Assembly (NCBI GenBank): GCA_030693425.1
Contig: JAUYAM010000002.1
Span: 320,632 to 384,631, forward strand
From: a bacterium
Lineage (GTDB): Bacteria > Patescibacteriota > Minisyncoccia > Minisyncoccales > GWA2-46-15
Reading direction: 5' to 3'
Length of the DNA stretch: 64,000 nucleotides
The notes beneath the pieces are model-generated. The model did no database searches, had not been told where the DNA came from, and saw only the letters and a list, made by a program, of their open reading frames with translations. The position numbers were made by a program, and so were the translations under genes. Shown here piece by piece: positions 21,228 to 29,414 of this stretch (positions are counted from its first letter, which is position 1; each line of letters begins with the position of its first letter).

Positions 21228-21755
21228 TTAAGGCTCGTCCTTAATGGGGGCTTTTTCTTTATTATTCAAAGAAATTTTATTTTTGACGTCATTCAGATAA
21301 GTGATTGGCGCGTTGGTTCTTTTTAATAATATTGAACATCTTTTTTGAATACTTGGGGAAAGTATGATTCTCAGTTTATTTTTTTCTTGCAAAAATTTTA
21401 CCAAACCGGCGTAATCTCCGTCGCTGGTAACTAACACTAGTTTTTCGCAAGAATTTTCATAAACATCCCTAGCTGCCCGTAAAACTAAATCGGCATCGCA
21501 ATTACCCTTTGGTTTGCCTTCTCCGTCATAAACCACTTCTTTAAAAATCAGAGTAAATCCGGCCTTTTGCAGCGCCTCATACATGTCTTTTTCCTTAGGG
21601 ATTAAACCAATAAAATAATAAGCTCTATCTACTCCATATTTGTCCTTTAGCCACTTTCTGAATCTGGAAAAATCAATCTTCCAGCCAGAATTATTTACTC
21701 CGCGGTATAAGTTATTGCCGTCTATAAACGCGTAATTATTTTCTTCTTTCTCCAT
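21228..21755 (-). CDS. NYN-domain (LabA-like) putative RNase
   Basis: NYAFIDGNNLY...AYYFIG...GNCDADLVLRAARD...LVLVTSDGDYAGLVKFL are the PIN-like acidic residue blocks of NYN/LabA proteins. Confidence 0.8.
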   Translation of the reverse strand: MEKEENNYAFIDGNNLYRGVNNSGWKIDFSRFRKWLKDKYGVDRAYYFIGLIPKEKDMYEALQKAGFTLIFKEVVYDGEGKPKGNCDADLVLRAARDVYENSCEKLVLVTSDGDYAGLVKFLQEKNKLRIILSPSIQKRCSILLKRTNAPITYLNDVKNKISLNNKEKAPIKDEP

Positions 21756-21912
21756 AATTTTACCTGCCCCGTAGCGTCCCGCTTTTAGCGGGACTGCTAC
21801 TGGGGTTTCTCAATTAATTCCCTCTTTTTGTTTTGCGTTCTCCGAGGCGCCCGGAGGACGACTCATTTCCGCCACGCACTTCCGAAGTCCCTCGACAAAC
21901 TCGGGACGGATA

Positions 21913-21939
21913 ATAAAAGGTACCTGACCCCTTTTCTCC
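21913..21939. repeat. Solo copy of the 'aaaaggtacctgacccctt' repeat
   Basis: ataaaaggtacctgaccccttttctcc. Confidence 0.8.
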
Positions 21940-22018
21940 TTTTAGATTATTTCTAAATGATTCAATACGGACTATTTATCTCGTCTTTTATCAGTCACGC
22001 AAAATGAAGATTTAAATT

Positions 22019-22690
22019 TTAAACATAAAACGTTAATGATTTATCTTTGTAATAATCCCTAAGCTCATTTTCAATTTTTTCTTTTGCCCCGTAAGCTCTC
22101 CCGCTGTAATGAGTCAGTTGTACAAAATTAATCATTCGATTATCTATTTTTACAGAAAATCTTTTTGAATTTATTTCATTTAATTTAACCGAATAGTAAT
22201 CTTTAAAGAATTTTTTAATAAAATAATATGTTGTACCTCCAAAACAAAAAACTGTTTTTATCTGGAAAACAGCTATCTCTTTGAGTAAAGCCTCCCCGCA
22301 CTTTTCTAAGATTTCGGGATTTGCCCTAACAACCGCATATACCTCTCCTGAGTTAGTATATTTATCTCTTTCTAAAAACTTCCTGAGGATTGAATGCTTT
22401 ATAAAATCAGATAGATAGCTTCCCTTTAATTTTTCTCTAATGTTTTTGCTTTTAAAATTTCCTATCAAGGCCAAAATAGGATGCCTCATATTATCCAACT
22501 CTAAACGATATAGATTAGGCAAACTACGATTCAAACCCAAAAACATTGTTTTTAACCTTTCTTTACTGGTTATTTTAGATAATTTACATTCAAAATACTC
22601 GTCTGGCAATAAAATACTAATATCTTCCAATGTTGTTGAGGGAACCTCAGAAATCATTTTTTTAAATTGTGCGTGATTTATGTTCTTCAT
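22019..22690 (-). CDS. Hypothetical protein, possibly a divergent uracil-DNA-glycosylase-fold protein
   Basis: 223 aa. TMFLGLNRS sits where UDG motif A (G-x-N/D-P-G/Y) would be. VQLTHYSGRAYG sits where motif B (H-P-S-x) would be. Both carry substitutions (P->R, P->Y). Weak, motif-only. Confidence 0.3.
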   Translation of the reverse strand: MKNINHAQFKKMISEVPSTTLEDISILLPDEYFECKLSKITSKERLKTMFLGLNRSLPNLYRLELDNMRHPILALIGNFKSKNIREKLKGSYLSDFIKHSILRKFLERDKYTNSGEVYAVVRANPEILEKCGEALLKEIAVFQIKTVFCFGGTTYYFIKKFFKDYYSVKLNEINSKRFSVKIDNRMINFVQLTHYSGRAYGAKEKIENELRDYYKDKSLTFYV

Positions 22691-22722
22691 AAAACTTTCC
22701 TTTATTTCGTCCTAAATTTTGA

Positions 22723-23112
22723 TTAAAGTGTAATCTCACGAATTTCTAATTGTGTTTTGCCTTCTTTTTTCGGTTGTTGAAAATTGATCAAAAGACCGTT
22801 TCTGATCTTTAAAATCTTCATGTAATTCTTAATCTGTTGTTCTTCCGACAAACCCAAACTGCCGCCGACTGCCTTCAACTCCAAGATTATTTTTTCCTGG
22901 CCAAAATGAACAATTATATCCGGATATCCTTCGCCCACATAATACTCTCTATATTTAAGTTCTACCACCTTTTGGCTCTCATATTTTATTTTTGCAAGGC
23001 GCAGCCCAACCTGCATCGCTTTATCATAAACATCTTCTGAAAAACCAGAACCAAGATTCTTATAAACGTCTTTTGCGATGGAAATTATTCTTTGAATTTT
23101 AATATTTTTCAT
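22723..23112 (-). CDS. GxxExxY family protein (PD-(D/E)xK nuclease fold)
   Basis: 129 aa. It has GSGFSEDVYDKAM (G-x-x-E-x-x-Y), YPDIIV and ILELKAV. Confidence 0.8.
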   Translation of the reverse strand: MKNIKIQRIISIAKDVYKNLGSGFSEDVYDKAMQVGLRLAKIKYESQKVVELKYREYYVGEGYPDIIVHFGQEKIILELKAVGGSLGLSEEQQIKNYMKILKIRNGLLINFQQPKKEGKTQLEIREITL

Positions 23113-23151
23113 ATTTTTATTTTCGTCAGCTTCCTAATTTTCTCTTTGAGT

Positions 23152-24780
23152 TCAAATATTATAAGCAAATTTAATATAATCGCCGATTTTGTTTTCGAGT
23201 TGTCTATTCCGATTTAGTTCTTTTATTTTTTCAGCGACCTTCAGTGGTTTATTATCACGACTAGAGATTTGAATACCAAGGTATGTTTCGATATTTGGCG
23301 AAAATGTCTTTCTTCTAGTTTCTTGGTTATTCAATAATTCTAAAATTTTTCCATTGGCTCCTGAATTCAAATCCTGACCTTCTGTATCATGAATAACAAC
23401 ATAATCTATCTGAAAGTGATTAAGAACTTTTTGAAACAAGGGAATAAAATCCCTACCGCGACAATTTATAAGAGTTGTATCTTCTTTTTTATGAAGATTA
23501 GTCTCTTCACTTAAAACATTCATAAACTCTCCGCCCTCTTTAAGGGTGACAAATTCACTATCTCCTTCTAATAAGACAACTCTTCTTGCGAAAAATAATT
23601 CGTTCACTGCAGGATCAAAGCGTATAATCATCTGCAATCTTTCTTTTGCTTCTTCTCTATTTCCGCCAGTGAATATTTCTTCGCTCTGCTGAAAAGTTTT
23701 CAAGTGATTTTCTGATGTCCGCACAAAACGAATGAGGGCTTTCTTTTTGTCTACTATACGAATTAAAAAGGGAGAATGTGTTGTTAAAATTACTTGCGCT
23801 TTTCCTTCTTCAGCAATTTCGTATAAAGTATTAGTAATTTTCCTAATCATTTGTGGATGCATATATATCTCTGGCTCCTCGATCATCAGGAGATTACGAG
23901 GACCGATTTCTTTAGAAGCGGGGCTTTTGGTTTCGGCAAGGAGTTCCAAGAGTGCAAAGATAAGTGCTCTTTGAAAACCGTGACCCTGTTCTTCTGGACT
24001 TGTAGTAATTTCTCTTCCATCGTTTGCAAGAATATTCGGAGTCGGCAGAATTTTTTCGACTTTAGGCACCTCGGCATCTATCAAACTTTTAGCAGGGATA
24101 ATTCGCGATAACCTCTCTGTAATTTTCCCTTCTATTTCCTTGATTTTAGGAAGCTGTGTTCCCCCCTTAAAAAGTGCTGCATATTTTTGGAACGCACCTA
24201 ACAACTCTTTGAATTGTGGTGTTTTTTCAAGATCGTTACGCAAAATTAGATTAAACAACTGGCCGAAAACGGCTTTCGTGTTGCCTTCTGTCACATCAGA
24301 TATACTTTTTATAGCCTCAATATAAATTTTCTGCATTTTTTCATCAGTAAAAAGATCGTCGCAGTTTTGAGGCCGGCCGGTTGGATTTCTTTTTTCTTCG
24401 CCATTCACGATCGCGATATAATCACATTGAGCACTACCATCTTCCAAATAGTAATAAGACTTTCTTAAAATCCACACATCTTCTTTGTCCTCTTGTGAAA
24501 TATATGGCGATATTGCCAGATGGACTTTATCTCTATTAGTAAGATTATTAAACACAACTGTAATCACGACAGCATGGGTTTGATCATTTTGTTTATTAAA
24601 GAAGTATTCTACCGGCATCGTCTTTGTGCCAGAAAAATAAATATCTAGAGCTTTAAGGACAGAAGACTTTCCAACGTTATTCTCCCCTATTAATACTAAA
24701 ATATCGTCCGAAAAATCAAAGTCAATTGGGTCTGGACCTAGGCATTTAAAGTTCTGTATTGTGAATTTCTTGATCTTCAT
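23152..24780 (-). CDS. OLD-family nuclease: ABC-type ATPase fused to a TOPRIM domain
   Basis: Walker A GENNVGKSSVLKALD, Walker B LLMIEEPEIYMHP, TTHSP, then the TOPRIM-type motifs VVLLEGDSE and YVVIHDTEG. Confidence 0.8.
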   Translation of the reverse strand: MKIKKFTIQNFKCLGPDPIDFDFSDDILVLIGENNVGKSSVLKALDIYFSGTKTMPVEYFFNKQNDQTHAVVITVVFNNLTNRDKVHLAISPYISQEDKEDVWILRKSYYYLEDGSAQCDYIAIVNGEEKRNPTGRPQNCDDLFTDEKMQKIYIEAIKSISDVTEGNTKAVFGQLFNLILRNDLEKTPQFKELLGAFQKYAALFKGGTQLPKIKEIEGKITERLSRIIPAKSLIDAEVPKVEKILPTPNILANDGREITTSPEEQGHGFQRALIFALLELLAETKSPASKEIGPRNLLMIEEPEIYMHPQMIRKITNTLYEIAEEGKAQVILTTHSPFLIRIVDKKKALIRFVRTSENHLKTFQQSEEIFTGGNREEAKERLQMIIRFDPAVNELFFARRVVLLEGDSEFVTLKEGGEFMNVLSEETNLHKKEDTTLINCRGRDFIPLFQKVLNHFQIDYVVIHDTEGQDLNSGANGKILELLNNQETRRKTFSPNIETYLGIQISSRDNKPLKVAEKIKELNRNRQLENKIGDYIKFAYNI

Positions 24781-24843
24781 TTTTGTTCTTCAACAATTTT
24801 TATTTCCTCCGGGGTGAGGCTGTAGAGTTTATAAACCATTTGG

Positions 24844-26739
24844 TCAATTTGTTTTTCGTATTCGCGAACTTTGGATTGCTTGTTTAATTTCTGGTAAATG
24901 ACTCCTAAAATACTTCTCTGTATCTTTATCCATAAAATAAACGTACACGCCTTTATGGGCTCTGGAAAAAAGTACGCGATAAACGTTTTTTAAGTGATTC
25001 GTAAGGTTTGGATTATTGCGTTTCACTTGCGTATCATAAGAATTCTCTGGAACCGCCCGCCACTTATTTGCAACTGGATCGAAAACTAAATCTTTGCCGA
25101 AAATTACGGCGATATAATCGAATTCAAAACCTTGTGCCGTATACACAGTACCGACTTGTTCCATACCCGAATTATCTGTGGCCCACTTCCAAAACTGGTC
25201 TTTTTTCTCCCAGGGCATTTCAAAACTCCCGATTTTTACATCGTTTACCAACGAACCATCTAAATTGGGGCTGCTCCAAGGCCAACAAAATCCAGCCGCT
25301 ATACGAGCCGAGTTTGGTTTTTCTTTATTTCGTTTTCTAATTTCAGCCATCATATCTGATGGGTTATTGAAAATGCGGAATTCCATTCTTGTATCAAATT
25401 CTGTAATTTCCGTATCTTGAATTTCTAAAATATTATCTAGCCATTGCAGATAAGCGTCAGAGCCGGAACATCTAAATTGAGTTTTTAATTCGAACTCAGC
25501 TATATTTTTATTATCTATACCAAAACGCCTAGCAGTTTCCTTGATCATCGCAATGCTGCCAACTTCACTCGGCCGTACAATTTGATACTCATCTATAAAG
25601 AAAATGCTTAATTTCGCCGGTCTTATCAAATCATCTATCTGCGGGTTTTTTGACTTAAATTTAAATGGCACTCCATAGTCGTTACTATCCTTGCGAACAC
25701 GATGAGCTTCGTCGCAAATCAATATGTCGATAGAATTATCTGGTTCTTTTGTAAAATTAAAGAAAAATTTAAAAAGGTTTTTTCCCCTCTCTCCCCCAAC
25801 TATTTTTTTGAGAGTATTGGTAAATGCGGACGAACCAGTAGCATGCATAACTTTTATACCTTTTCTTAGAAGTTCTCCCATTACCTCGAGCGCAATAACT
25901 GACTTACCGGTACCGGGCCCACCTTTTACTATTACTACTGATTTTTGTTTTGTTTTCGCAAGCTGCTTAACTTTGTGCATTATCGCATTATAAGCAGCAA
26001 TTTGCTCATCGATTAAATTAAAAATTTGCCTCTTATTTATCATCTCTGATGTATGATCAAGTAATTTCTTAGACGGCTCTATTGGACTTCTTGCAAATCG
26101 CTCATAAATTATTTGTCCCCTGCCACCTTGAAGTCGTTTTTTTAAATATCTTCCTAATTCAACGGCGTCTTCCTTTGCAAATAGCGGAAAGATTTTAATT
26201 ATTCTGGAAAATTCTGGAGAAAAAAGAATAGCATTTATTTTCTTTGAATAATTATGCAGATATGCAGATGCACTTAACTCTGGCGGGTTGTTTTCTTCAA
26301 AAATCTTAAGAAAATCCTTTAGTCCGAAGTAATATCCTTGTACTTGTAGGGCGGGGTGTGGTTGTTCCTTCTTAAATTGTCCATAATTAACAATTACATT
26401 ACCGTCAGTTTCGGCGTCTTGCACATGTTGATTTGACCATTGTTTGAGTTCCACTATCACAATATTTTCTTGTCCATCTATGTCATGCCCAAAAAGTAAA
26501 ACATCAATTCTTCGCGACGAATAAGGAAGTTCATATTCGACAATTATATGGTTGTCTTTAAGGCCAGCGTAATGGAAGCTATTATTTAGGATTGCAAGCG
26601 AAATTGCCCAAGATCGATACTCGGGTTCACCGGGATTTCGGTTGTAATATGTTCGGTACTTTTCAGCCGCACGATCCGCAATGCAATTCTGCATTACATC
26701 TTCGTTAAATCGCTCAATTGTTTCTTCATAAAGAATCAT
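24844..26739 (-). CDS. DUF2075-type protein: N-terminal PD-(D/E)xK nuclease motif fused to an SF1 helicase-like ATPase
   Basis: RRIDVLLFG...VIVELKQW (D...ExK), Walker A GGPGTGKS, Walker B ICDEAHR, TVYTAQGFEFDYIAVIFG and YRVLFSRAHKGVYVY. Confidence 0.85.
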   Translation of the reverse strand: MILYEETIERFNEDVMQNCIADRAAEKYRTYYNRNPGEPEYRSWAISLAILNNSFHYAGLKDNHIIVEYELPYSSRRIDVLLFGHDIDGQENIVIVELKQWSNQHVQDAETDGNVIVNYGQFKKEQPHPALQVQGYYFGLKDFLKIFEENNPPELSASAYLHNYSKKINAILFSPEFSRIIKIFPLFAKEDAVELGRYLKKRLQGGRGQIIYERFARSPIEPSKKLLDHTSEMINKRQIFNLIDEQIAAYNAIMHKVKQLAKTKQKSVVIVKGGPGTGKSVIALEVMGELLRKGIKVMHATGSSAFTNTLKKIVGGERGKNLFKFFFNFTKEPDNSIDILICDEAHRVRKDSNDYGVPFKFKSKNPQIDDLIRPAKLSIFFIDEYQIVRPSEVGSIAMIKETARRFGIDNKNIAEFELKTQFRCSGSDAYLQWLDNILEIQDTEITEFDTRMEFRIFNNPSDMMAEIRKRNKEKPNSARIAAGFCWPWSSPNLDGSLVNDVKIGSFEMPWEKKDQFWKWATDNSGMEQVGTVYTAQGFEFDYIAVIFGKDLVFDPVANKWRAVPENSYDTQVKRNNPNLTNHLKNVYRVLFSRAHKGVYVYFMDKDTEKYFRSHLPEIKQAIQSSRIRKTN

Positions 26740-26741
26740 AA

Positions 26742-27089
26742 TTAAAGCCTGTTGTATTTAGTATATTTCCCTTTTGCTTTTTTGAGCGGATATTTCTCTT
26801 CGTTTTTTTTGATTTTTTTATCAAGCGCATCGAGAATATCAATTTTAAGATCATGGCTCATCAATAAAACCCAATATAAAACATCTGCCAATTCTTCACC
26901 AATATCGGCTTTATTTGTTCCAATATACTTATCAATCTCCTCTTTATTTTTCCATTGAAAATGCTCCACGACCTCGCCAGCTTCAAGAACAAGCGAAAGC
27001 GCGACATCTTTTGGATTATGAAATTGTTTCCAATCTCGCTCGTTGCGAAATTTTATAATTTTTTCTGTAAGTTTTTTTATATCAGACAT
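26742..27089 (-). CDS. MazG-like nucleotide pyrophosphohydrolase (all-alpha NTP-PPase)
   Basis: 115 aa. It has RDWKQFHNPKDVALSLVLEAGEVVEHFQW and IGEELADVLYWVLLMSHDLKIDI, the EExxE/ExxD metal motifs. Confidence 0.85.
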   Translation of the reverse strand: MSDIKKLTEKIIKFRNERDWKQFHNPKDVALSLVLEAGEVVEHFQWKNKEEIDKYIGTNKADIGEELADVLYWVLLMSHDLKIDILDALDKKIKKNEEKYPLKKAKGKYTKYNRL

Positions 27090-27093
27090 AAAT

Positions 27094-27807
27094 TTATATT
27101 AAATTTTGTTCTTTTAGACTATAAAATTTGTCTCTAGTAACAATAATGTGATCGAGAAGTTCAATGCCAAAAATTTTAGCTGCCTCTTCTAGACGTCTTG
27201 TCAATGCAATATCTTCTGGCGAAGCCTCTAAATTTCCTGACGGATGGTTATGGGCAATTATTATTTGTGCAGCAGAGGATTGAATCGCTTCTTTAAAAAC
27301 TTCTCGGGGGTGAACAATACTTGCATTAAGCGAGCCCACCGAGATATTACTGATTTTTATCAAATAATTATGTGCATCGAGAGACAACATAACAAAGTGC
27401 TCTTTCTTTTCCCGACCGATAGATTTTTGTAAAAAATCAGCTACGGCCTTTGATGAATTAAGCGTAACTTTTTCTGGTATATGTTCTTTAGCAAAGCGTT
27501 CAGATACCGCCTGAAAAAGTTTTATACCGAATGTGTTAGATGGACCAATACCTTTAATTTGCTGTAGTTCATCAAACGAAGCATCAAGTACGCCGCGCAA
27601 TCCTTTAAATATTTTAATTGCTTCTTTTGCCATTTGCTTGCAATCTTTCCGCGGAGTACCCAAGGTCAAAAGTAATTCCACTATTTCATAATCAAGAAAT
27701 CCATGGAGTCCTGACTGTAAAAATCTACCCCTCAGTCGCTTTCTATGACCAGCACCCACAGGCTTTTCTCTCGGCCTTTCAATTTTAGGCAGGTCTTTTA
27801 TTCTCAT
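27094..27807 (-). CDS. radC: RadC-like JAB/MPN domain protein
   Basis: An N-terminal HhH region (ELQQIKGIGPSNTFGIKL) and a C-terminal JAB motif (IIIAHNHPSGNLEASPEDIALTRRL). Confidence 0.9.
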   Translation of the reverse strand: MRIKDLPKIERPREKPVGAGHRKRLRGRFLQSGLHGFLDYEIVELLLTLGTPRKDCKQMAKEAIKIFKGLRGVLDASFDELQQIKGIGPSNTFGIKLFQAVSERFAKEHIPEKVTLNSSKAVADFLQKSIGREKKEHFVMLSLDAHNYLIKISNISVGSLNASIVHPREVFKEAIQSSAAQIIIAHNHPSGNLEASPEDIALTRRLEEAAKIFGIELLDHIIVTRDKFYSLKEQNLI

Positions 27808-28117: not shown

Positions 28118-28822
28118 TCAGTTTTCGCTCTCCAGCTTCAATTTCAGCTGGAAGATGGCCTCGGTGCGGAGCTTGGCCCGGGCCCAGTCTTTTTGTTTTT
28201 CGTTCAAAAGCTCACCCATGCCGGCAAGAATACTTCTCTTGTCCGTTTTTTCTAAAAGATCTATGCACTTCTGTAAAAAGTTCTTAAACGGCATTCCAGT
28301 CCGCGTTTCAACGATTTCTTTATTAACCGGCCAGTTTTTTTCCAGGAAATACCAGACATCATAAATATCGCGGTTGGTTTTGGTGATTCGTTCGTACATA
28401 GCGCAAAGCTTATGGGCAAACATATCCTCCTGCGTCATGACTTTCATGGAGATGCCCAGATACGATTCCACTTTATATTTTGAGCCGAATCCCCGGCGAT
28501 TAATATCCACTTTGATATTTTGGGCAGCCGGAGTCTTATCGCTGTAGGCAAGCACGAAAGACAGATTGAAGCGCTTTTTCCCGGCTTCTTTGACGACCCC
28601 GTATTTCTCCAGGATCTTTCGCGCTTCTTCAAAAACAAAATCTTCTTTGCTTTCTTCAAGCAAATCAAAATCCAAATCAACGGAAAAACGGTCGAGTCCG
28701 TAGAACAAATAGGCTGCCGTACCGCCTTTAAAGCCCAAAATCGGCCCGATCGCATGATCCGTGTAAATATCTTTCAGTATCTTGATCAGAATATTTTTGT
28801 GTGTGACGATATTGAGCGACAT
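28118..28822 (-). CDS. AbiEii/AbiGii-family nucleotidyltransferase toxin (type IV TA)
   Basis: LGFKGGTAAYLFYGLDRFSVDLDFDL is the NTase G-G-T...D-x-D core. ATG at 28822 (MSLNIVTHKNIL) lies 4 nt after the AbiEi stop, so the longer track start is unlikely. Confidence 0.85.
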   Translation of the reverse strand: MSLNIVTHKNILIKILKDIYTDHAIGPILGFKGGTAAYLFYGLDRFSVDLDFDLLEESKEDFVFEEARKILEKYGVVKEAGKKRFNLSFVLAYSDKTPAAQNIKVDINRRGFGSKYKVESYLGISMKVMTQEDMFAHKLCAMYERITKTNRDIYDVWYFLEKNWPVNKEIVETRTGMPFKNFLQKCIDLLEKTDKRSILAGMGELLNEKQKDWARAKLRTEAIFQLKLKLESEN

Positions 28823-28826
28823 AGGT

Positions 28827-29414
28827 TTAATTGATTTTGTCTTGAGCCAATTGGTAATATTGCTTGACTTTTTTCTCCATTCTTTTATTGCCGCCATAGA
28901 TTGGCAGGATTTCATAAACCTTGTTCCAATTTAAAGGGGAAAGATTATCAAAATGGTAATCCTTGCAGAGATAGATGACATCCAAAAAAGCGCGCTCCGG
29001 CAAAGCGATGGAATAGTTGTCTCTTTTTTCGATTCCGGCCGGATCGGTTAAAATCTTATCCTTAATCTTTTTATAGGCATAAGCTTGACCGTCAGCCGTT
29101 ATTTCTCTTGTCAGATAAGAAGCGACGAAGATCTGGCCGTAAAACTGGAAAGTCACTCCCGCTCCACCTAAAACGGTCTCAAAACTGATATACGAAGGAC
29201 TAAATATCTTTGTCGCTAATTCCAGTTTTTCGTAATTCTTATCCTTAGCATACATGCCCCTTCTAACCGGATATAACTCTCCTTTTTTAATGTAATAACT
29301 GATCCGCCTTCTCAATAAGGCAGGGTTGGTTTCGCCTGACGACAAAAGTATCTCTTTAAAAGAGAAAACGGTGTTGTTCGACCTTAAAATGCTCAAAATA
29401 TCAGCTTTTTCCAT
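28827..29414 (-). CDS. AbiEi-family antitoxin / transcriptional regulator
   Basis: N-terminal wHTH FSFKEILLSSGETNPALLRRRISYYIKKGELYPVRRGMYA, plus a position directly upstream of AbiEii. Confidence 0.8.
   Translation of the reverse strand: MEKADILSILRSNNTVFSFKEILLSSGETNPALLRRRISYYIKKGELYPVRRGMYAKDKNYEKLELATKIFSPSYISFETVLGGAGVTFQFYGQIFVASYLTREITADGQAYAYKKIKDKILTDPAGIEKRDNYSIALPERAFLDVIYLCKDYHFDNLSPLNWNKVYEILPIYGGNKRMEKKVKQYYQLAQDKIN

Follow-up and report, generated by a model that had tools for sequence, protein, structure and literature searches.

The 64,000-nucleotide stretch analysed here (the window; positions 320,632 to 384,631 of contig JAUYAM010000002.1, assembly GCA_030693425.1, from a bacterium of the Patescibacteriota) carries on its minus strand a cassette of three genes, which code for a RadC protein, a small MazG-like pyrophosphohydrolase and a nuclease-helicase of the DUF2075 family; all coordinates are window positions. 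The RadC gene (27094..27807) encodes a full-length protein of 237 amino acids (aa) with the UPF0758 N-terminal helix-hairpin-helix (HhH) region and a RadC-like JAB domain. It is followed by the MazG-like gene (26742..27089; 115 aa), whose product is assigned to the all-alpha nucleoside triphosphate (NTP) pyrophosphohydrolases of the DCTPP1-like type by its PF12643 match, by matches to solved structures in the PDB and by its conserved neighbourhood, and then by the gene for the nuclease-helicase (24844..26739; 631 aa), which has an Nhi-type architecture according to its translation, Pfam matches and homologues. The genes are separated by only a few bases. The RadC stop codon TAA (27096-27094) stands four bases (27093-27090) before the ATG of the MazG-like gene at 27089 (junction 27087..27096), and the MazG-like stop codon TAA (26744-26742) is followed by the two bases tt (26741-26740) and by the ATG of the DUF2075 gene at 26739 (junction 26737..26744), whose own stop codon occupies 24846-24844. 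Read on the minus strand, the coordinates and the spacings of 2 and 4 nucleotides (nt) given in a preliminary description of this DNA proved exact, and the same three genes have been called independently on identical DNA (public gene call of a Logan contig).

The arrangement is not peculiar to this genome. Our census of the nuclease-helicase comprised 80 full-length relatives with 37-79% identity, on contigs representing one genome per species; loci are named below by our own labels. The hosts belong to more than 15 phyla and include bacteria (Patescibacteria, Acidobacteriota, Bacillota, Bacteroidota, Pseudomonadota, Actinomycetota and Chloroflexota, among others) as well as archaea (including Woesearchaeota, Methanosarcinales and Thermoplasmata). 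In 44 of the 80 relatives the gene immediately upstream, in the same orientation, codes for a MazG-like homologue; in four such a gene is directly downstream, in two it adjoins on the opposite strand, and in five it is found no more than 3 kb away, one to three genes off. MazG is thus strongly enriched next to DUF2075, as the pairing put forward in the preliminary description had implied: with the background density of MazG open reading frames (ORFs) in the same flanks and an upstream slot of ~420 nt, about 0.31 upstream placements would be expected, against the 44 observed (Poisson P ~1e-77, with shared ancestry ignored). When the flanking ORFs of the 80 loci were clustered, no other neighbour of comparable conservation was found. 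Twenty-four relatives have no MazG within 5 kb, and an iterative profile search revealed no hidden MazG copies near the helicase relatives; the nuclease-helicase can evidently exist alone, and for this reason MazG is better described as an accessory than as an obligatory partner. Clustering of the helicases at 70% identity gave 61 clusters, 43 with MazG, 16 without it and one mixed, from which it follows that the association is spread over many lineages and has been lost several times.

The divergence of the two proteins is correlated (Spearman 0.29 between their identities, a value reached by none of 2000 permutations). The exceptions are four loci (L020-L022 and L054) whose MazG is 63-74% identical to that of the window next to a helicase of 41-45% identity, and the occurrence of a divergent helicase beside a similar MazG points to an exchange of modules between helicase clades. 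When L102 is considered together with L020, L021, L022 and L054, MazG (and RadC, if present) is 60-74% identical and the adjoining helicase 33-45%. A tandem of two MazG-like and DUF2075 pairs was also observed, in Paraburkholderia haematera (L052, 2291-6890). The junction between the MazG-like and DUF2075 genes measures between -4 and +4 nt in 33 of the 44 loci with an upstream MazG, 12 of them with 4-nt overlaps. This near-zero spacing suggests that the cassette genes may be co-expressed in a fixed proportion, and from it we infer that MazG and DUF2075 are probably co-translated, that is, translationally coupled. A scan for promoters and terminators between 22.6 and 29.6 kb gave counts at chance level, so that operon boundaries could not be called.

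RadC is the third conserved member in the clade of the window. The protein matches PF04002 (E = 3.7e-45) and PF20582 (E = 1.3e-12), scores 223 bits against the NCBIfam equivalog NF000642 (cut-off 180), and its translation reads H186-N-H188-P-S190-G ... S196-P-E-D199 (27211..27252, minus strand), residues 186-199 corresponding to the JAB metal-binding motif of the JAB/MPN family. Where helicases are at least 72% identical to that of the window, a full-length RadC gene stands beside MazG and DUF2075 in nine of nine contexts; these are nine places from seven proteins, and their remaining flanks are unrelated. The order is RadC-MazG-helicase in the window and in L169, L170, L171, L174 and L176, and MazG-RadC-helicase in L172/L173, L175 and L177. 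That the linkage is kept while the position of the gene is permuted makes it unlikely that RadC is a bystander. Furthermore, RadC identity to the window protein (62-90%) tracks the identities of MazG and helicase, so that the three genes diverge together. RadC is therefore part of a conserved unit in this clade, more than a mere neighbour, and because it is present in all nine contexts the cassette has to be counted as three genes there. Additional RadC genes were found in the genome census in L060 and L003 (RadC-MazG-helicase), in L001 (MazG-RadC-helicase) and, downstream, in L013, L014 and L054, as well as in the metagenome set (L083, L081 and L102).

The N-terminal domain of the nuclease-helicase (aa 1-245; 26005..26739, minus strand) is, as predicted from NERD and related Pfam matches, a NERD-like PD-(D/E)xK nuclease placed ahead of a superfamily 1 (SF1) helicase core. 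Residue conservation was read in 22 close homologues and in 81 sequences of 37-100% identity. The putative catalytic core E68 ... D79 ... E97-L-K99 (26443..26538) is invariant in all 81, and the invariant residues of the family are E68, R77, D79, E97, K99, Q100, W101, H128, P129, Y136 and H162. Both motifs quoted in the preliminary description, RRIDVLLFG (which holds D79) and VIVELKQW (which holds E97 and K99), are present, and its PD-(D/E)xK signature is borne out by catalytic residues that remain unchanged down to 37% identity and by NERD-type matches in homologues. The domain of the window protein itself scores 18.4-20.2 bits against NERD (PF08378; E = 8.5e-4), just under the cut-off of 22.1 bits, and 21 of the 81 homologues match NERD at E <= 0.05 (best 1.8e-6), three match SduA_C, the nuclease domain of Shedu, and other PD-(D/E)xK families are matched by single homologues. 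Predicted beta strands at 64-69, 77-85 and 91-99 fit the PD-(D/E)xK core, in a low-confidence part of the full-protein structure model, to which little weight is given (22-sequence alignment; mean predicted local distance difference test score 58.7, below 50 in the N-terminal domain). A PDB profile search with the 81 N-terminal domain sequences gave spurious repeat-protein matches only. The domain occurs in 1,358 representative clusters (50% identity), nearly always heading proteins of ~620 aa. For the nuclease-helicase family as a whole, 8,000 candidates from a 90%-identity database were scored, of which 5,288 reached E <= 1e-10.

The DUF2075 or Schlafen-group-3 SF1 helicase core (aa 266-604; 24928..25944) matches PF09848 (SLFN-g3_helicase, DUF2075; E = 3.8e-80) over the full profile, positions 1-354, and its Walker A motif GGPGTGKS (aa 273-280; 25900..25923) and Walker B motif DEAH (aa 343-346; 25702..25713) are invariant in the 81 sequences. 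In PADLOC the best match of the window protein is the candidate PDC-S41, in three fragments and at E = 2.8e-21, and the Nhi model matches only aa 244-472, in the helicase part (E = 6e-12). Genuine PDC-S41 members (E = 1e-288) occur as separate genes beside the family studied here in L030 and L035. As the matches to PDC-S41 and Nhi are partial and the PDC-S41 members are separate genes, the nuclease-helicase of the window is best regarded as a clade of its own. A second, paralogous DUF2075 gene adjoins this family at L030:6934-8913, L035:6936-8939 and L161:1904-3760, which suggests paired nuclease-helicases in some islands; the L030 and L035 paralogues appear to be the PDC-S41 matches at 1e-288. 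At its other end, the window protein has a C-terminal extension of 12-13 aa that is lacking in all close homologues of the 22-homologue alignment, and this absence suggests a recombination junction at 24777-24839. The same positions hold an ORF of 20 codons on the minus strand (MVYKLYSLTPEEIKIVEEQK), between the DUF2075 stop codon and the start of the OLD gene described below, whose ATG overlaps the stop codon of the small ORF (ATGA). The MVYKLYSLTPEEIKIVEEQK peptide is similar to the tail conserved at the C-terminus of many type IIG and type I DNA methyltransferases, and the ORF may have been left over from a restriction-modification gene that was deleted.

The MazG-like protein matches PF12643 (E = 4e-15, 56.2 bits; cut-off 27) and PF03819 (E = 1.5e-7, 32 bits; cut-off 22), and its nearest solved structures are an archaeal pyrophosphatase (4qgp; E = 5e-18) and DCTPP1/RS21-C6 (E = 1.7e-17). 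Both metal-binding motifs of the MazG fold, E36-x-x-E39 (26973..26984, minus strand) and E66-x-x-D69 (26883..26894, minus strand; D69 corresponds to Asp98 of DCTPP1), are invariant, E36, E39, E66 and D69 being present in all 42 linked MazG-like proteins and in 128 relatives; the enzyme is thus predicted to be catalytically competent. In DCTPP1 the base pocket consists of a Trp47/Trp73 sandwich, His38 and His51 as cytosine filters, Asp98 and Tyr129 (PMC13291643). With the PDB-match alignment and the residue roles from that work, the stacking tryptophans Trp47 and Trp73 map to W20 and W46 (W or F at the latter) and are conserved, the cytosine-selective His51 has its counterpart in the invariant H24, and the equivalents of Phe41, Phe50, Asp98 (D69) and Tyr129 (Y100) are likewise conserved. 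His38 is replaced by Ile, Val or Leu, and because this position is aliphatic the substrate preference is uncertain. At the mapped positions the nuclease-linked proteins have the same pocket as MazG relatives in housekeeping contexts, which adjoin rRNA methyltransferase, TGT or PurU genes. Since the pocket is shared with such relatives, sanitation of non-canonical deoxynucleoside triphosphates (dNTPs) fits better than bulk depletion, and the conserved residues speak for house-cleaning of non-canonical pyrimidine dNTPs as the likely activity, not for a regulated bulk-depletion effector.

A reverse census, covering 80 metagenomic loci with the closest relatives of this MazG (40-83% identity), showed that the MazG clade recurs beside different DNA nucleases. 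A DUF2075 gene adjoins MazG in 39 of these loci, variants of the GIY-YIG-DUF2075 type included, and about seven of the DUF2075 partners carry a different N-terminal domain. Such proteins stand right after the same MazG clade at L088:677-2400, L095:3851-5450, L087, L089, L092, L112 and L132; two of the N-termini were scanned, of which that of L088 gave a GIY-YIG nuclease match (E = 7.6e-5) and that of L095 gave no N-terminal match. HNH proteins tightly follow MazG in L082, L085 and their cluster, as does a Vsr/MTES_1575 endonuclease in L101. Close MazG relatives are directly followed by a family of ~365 aa at L103:562-1659, L110:3843-4949 and L111:484-1611, in which neither Pfam nor PADLOC gave a match. 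More distant MazG relatives are found in housekeeping neighbourhoods. Long ORFs that looked like MazG-nuclease fusions among the 80 metagenomic loci were rejected as calling artefacts. In addition, the integrase-proximal accessory region of a Vibrio P2-like prophage (Vibrio phage 10N.286.55.A5_PE003; L167, 1885-6636) holds an HmuI-like HNH gene that overlaps the gene of a close MazG relative, together with an HNH endonuclease, a RiboL-PSP-HEPN gene and a type II restriction enzyme. Plasmid pKK1 of B. thuringiensis (L164, 2208-5800) carries, in this order, genes for an NTP pyrophosphohydrolase, an HNH endonuclease and a distant (25% identity) DUF2075 nuclease-helicase, and 69 Bacillus plasmid records match the last of these; the pKK1 pyrophosphohydrolase was rejected as a member of the same MazG subfamily (E = 0.019), and we regard this as an analogous association built of non-orthologous parts.

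The neighbourhood of the cassette in the window is a defence island. Directly upstream of RadC lies an AbiEi/AbiEii pair (28118-29414, minus strand; PADLOC E = 3.3e-59 and 2.6e-77), which belongs to the toxin-antitoxin systems that act by abortive infection; in L169 and L171, but in no other relatives, AbiEii likewise stands ahead of the cassette. Downstream, a co-directional run on the minus strand (21228-24780) comprises an OLD-family protein with AAA_15 and Toprim nuclease domains (23152-24780; E = 3e-70), a PDDEXK_3 protein (22723-23112), a protein of 223 aa with a weak match to the uracil-DNA glycosylase (UDG) superfamily (22019-22690; E = 6e-4) and an NYN-domain protein (21228-21755), none of which is conserved with the cassette. 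The OLD nuclease, 63 nt downstream in the window, was considered as a cassette member and rejected because it occurs at none of the 80 loci. The flanks of relatives are variable: among 143 flanking genes the raw counts were HNH 7, PbeA 3, type IV restriction 2 and SoFic 2, and type I restriction endonuclease, BrxP, DrmD and HmaA genes were also present. Several neighbours are of kinds that read or cut modified cytosine. On a Priestia plasmid the order is DUF3578, MazG, DUF2075, where DUF3578 is presumably a domain like the N-terminus of McrB; in L049 an SRA-HNH-like gene overlaps the helicase start, with weak matches (SRA 2.6e-4, HNH 3.1e-4); and genes with DUF3427 and DUF3883, whose association with DUF2075 has been remarked before (PMC6765204), are among the neighbours of helicase relatives.

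Copies also occur on plasmids. All three proteins are 60-90% identical across unrelated lineages of both domains, in a patchy pattern. Helicases of 60-80% identity to that of the window (P0013, P0029, L001 and L007) come from contigs labelled Bathyarchaeia, Fibrobacteraceae, Pseudomonadota or Bordetella, labels that reflect either recent transfer between very distant hosts or mis-binned contigs. A scan of viral contigs with the helicase alignment found nothing, and a helicase relative is present in four of 50,697 phage records, in all four with an adjoining MazG relative; on these grounds an origin as a phage gene was rejected. The enterobacterial relative L050, used as a query, had no match in complete E. 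coli genomes.

Taken together, the cassette is probably a horizontally mobile unit of defence islands that combines an Nhi-type effector with an accessory hydrolase of non-canonical dNTPs. By homology to Nhi, the nuclease-helicase would be the effector, loading on and unwinding foreign DNA or replication intermediates at the expense of ATP and then cutting them. The MazG-like enzyme would convert nucleoside triphosphates into monophosphates and pyrophosphate, and its likeliest substrates would be non-canonical pyrimidine dNTPs modified at position 5 rather than the dNTP pool at large, because the pocket is DCTPP1-like and helicase relatives stand beside readers of modified cytosine. As a consequence, the phage might be denied the modified nucleotides that shield its DNA or, alternatively, modified nucleotides from degraded phage DNA might be kept out of the host chromosome. 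RadC may bind DNA via its HhH region. Several observations weigh against this interpretation. The links to modified-cytosine readers are few and some of them are weak, of the two residues proposed to filter cytosine in DCTPP1 one, His38, is replaced, and nuclease-linked and housekeeping-context MazG proteins show no mark of specialisation in the pocket. In addition, 24 of the 80 helicase relatives do without a nearby MazG, housekeeping homologues exist for RadC as well as for MazG-like proteins, cassettes are in some cases surrounded by ordinary genes (AlaRS, TspO), confidence in the modelled structure of the N-terminal domain is low and the match to the Nhi model is confined to the helicase part.

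A more specific version of this defence reading is put forward tentatively, as one possibility among several. MazG would be an immune pool sanitiser that destroys modified pyrimidine dNTPs of the phage (e.g. 5-hydroxymethyl-dCTP), so that phage DNA is left unprotected and degraded by the co-expressed nuclease-helicase while host DNA is guarded, with RadC as a third subunit; the combinations of MazG with PD-(D/E)xK, GIY-YIG, HNH and Vsr nucleases would then form one undescribed class of defence that counters phage anti-restriction.

The alternative that survives best, although we find it doubtful, is that the nuclease-helicase endangers its host and that the co-translated MazG acts as a safety catch, barring target-type nucleotides from host DNA or destroying a nucleotide that activates the nuclease. 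In the usual layout of antitoxin-toxin pairs a small gene comes first and overlaps a larger nuclease gene by 4 nt or ends at most 4 nt before it, as here, the same MazG clade precedes four types of nuclease (PD-(D/E)xK-DUF2075, GIY-YIG-DUF2075, HNH and Vsr), and one Nhi homologue is toxic on expression. This proposal, which overlaps with the favoured explanation, does not account easily for the relatives that have no MazG nearby (24 of 80), and at some loci MazG is downstream or divergent, which would be unusual for an antidote.

The preliminary description had instead suggested a two-pronged attack, in which MazG depletes the canonical (d)NTP pool upon infection and starves the phage while the nuclease-helicase degrades its DNA. 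Depletion of dNTPs is an established defence strategy, as in the dCTP deaminase and dGTPase systems, and the catalytic residues of MazG are invariant. Furthermore, rare variants of PUA-Cal-HAD, a dNTP-depleting defence system (bioRxiv 10.64898/2026.01.15.699771), have a MazG-like domain in place of the effector. Nevertheless, we consider bulk depletion unlikely: the enzyme is a minimal protein of 115 aa with neither sensor nor regulatory domain, its pocket is that of presumably constitutive and harmless relatives beside rRNA methyltransferase, TGT and PurU, and DCTPP1, its closest characterised homologue, prefers modified dCTP. The idea of nucleotide depletion therefore did not hold up as well as sanitation, which fits better a sequence closest to DCTPP1 with the pocket of housekeeping relatives.

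A role in DNA maintenance, with RadC, a house-cleaning pyrophosphatase and the nuclease-helicase acting jointly in repair or replication-fork processing in organisms with small genomes, would agree with a RadC that scores above the cut-off of the NCBIfam equivalog for ordinary RadC, with the housekeeping neighbourhoods of MazG-like relatives and the ordinary genes around some cassettes, and with the near absence of the family from phage records. We hold it to be improbable in view of the patchy distribution, the fact that each of the three proteins keeps 60-90% identity between unrelated lineages of both domains, the plasmid copies, the variable flanks with their many restriction, Abi, OLD and BREX/DISARM genes, and an architecture shared with a validated defence protein. 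That the genes adjoin by chance or through faulty annotation, for which nothing speaks other than the commonness of short gaps in compact genomes, is refuted by the census (44 placements against ~0.31 expected), by the agreeing independent gene call and by a conservation that spans both domains with differing flanking genes.

If the cassette works as a unit, it would mean that defence by a single protein of the Nhi type also has multi-gene forms, and that prokaryotic immunity has repeatedly taken up, next to DNA nucleases, a DCTPP1-like sanitiser from a family that in humans is known to keep DNA free of modified cytosines. It would also give a testable role to small MazG-like proteins and to RadC, which are common but poorly understood, and would suggest that the modified-nucleotide supply of a phage can be attacked instead of, or together with, its DNA, a principle not yet demonstrated. 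The nuclease-helicase family is widespread and present in cultured Bacillales and Burkholderiales, so that experiments are feasible.

The preliminary description had also held that the MazG-DUF2075 pairing was undescribed, and our searches agree: full-text literature other than subscription journals contained no paper on DUF2075 together with MazG or a pyrophosphohydrolase and none joining MazG, Nhi and phage, and the papers that turned up for MazG plus Schlafen or for RadC plus MazG were all irrelevant. The individual parts do have known counterparts. The MazG-like protein shares with DCTPP1/RS21-C6 and 4qgp the all-alpha MazG fold family, the size and the EXXE...EXXD metal site; it differs from DCTPP1 in the aliphatic residue at the His38 position and in that its gene, known here from sequence, lies inside a nuclease operon and is not a stand-alone housekeeping gene. 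The adjacency of MazG and HNH genes was noted in 2017 as 'Group 23' of the His-Me finger (HNH) proteins and was interpreted through MazEF/MazG of E. coli, not as defence (PMC5714182). That group is likewise a recurrent pair of MazG and a DNA nuclease, and we recovered it among the close relatives of this MazG and in the Vibrio prophage, but its partner is an HNH protein and not a DUF2075 nuclease-helicase. Among the defences that act on the nucleotide pool (dCTP deaminase, dGTPase, PUA-Cal-HAD and the MazG of DefensePredictor), the common trait is an enzyme that acts on nucleoside triphosphates and is used or predicted in immunity, whereas these systems deplete canonical dNTPs or use other gene sets, and none is paired with a DUF2075 nuclease-helicase. 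DefensePredictor (2026) lists MazG as an unvalidated predicted defence domain, in predicted MazG/MazG-C systems (PMC13092281); its MazG system was rejected as the same system because the gene set is different (MazG-C kinase, NMAD, UDG).

Regarding the nuclease-helicase, the eukaryotic Schlafen proteins of group 3 (SLFN5/11/13), which restrict viruses, also have the PF09848 helicase domain and an N-terminal nuclease, but that nuclease belongs to an unrelated type, neither MazG nor RadC accompanies these proteins and the similarity is very distant (SLFN5 in the PDB, E = 0.0076). The PADLOC candidate PDC-S41 is a DUF2075 protein of ~650 aa and the best PADLOC match of the window protein; it is nonetheless a paralogous family, given values of 1e-288 for its own members against fragments at 2.8e-21 for the window protein, and in L030, L035 and a Hymenobacter plasmid each family is represented by a gene of its own, next to the other. 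The closest counterparts are Nhi, the validated single-gene anti-phage protein SERP2475 of S. epidermidis (Bari et al., bioRxiv 10.1101/776245), and Nhi-like, a validated single-gene defence that has no sequence identity to Nhi (Millman et al., bioRxiv 10.1101/2022.05.11.491447). A nuclease and DUF2075 in one protein is thus an already known architecture, and the family of the window resembles both in joining an N-terminal PD-(D/E)xK nuclease to a DUF2075 SF1 helicase, with conserved residues, and in its occurrence in defence islands and on plasmids; the likeness to Nhi-like rests on the described architecture, and the homology to the family profile of SERP2475 is not full-length. In contrast to Nhi, the N-terminal domain is NERD-like and not HsdR-like, and the C-terminal glyoxalase-like domain of Nhi is absent. 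Furthermore, Nhi and Nhi-like have been described as single genes, while the family studied here has conserved partner genes, MazG-like and, in the clade of the window, RadC, which argue that it may often work with accessories. An Nhi-type nuclease-helicase with conserved accessory genes is apparently an undescribed multi-gene variant of Nhi-type defence.

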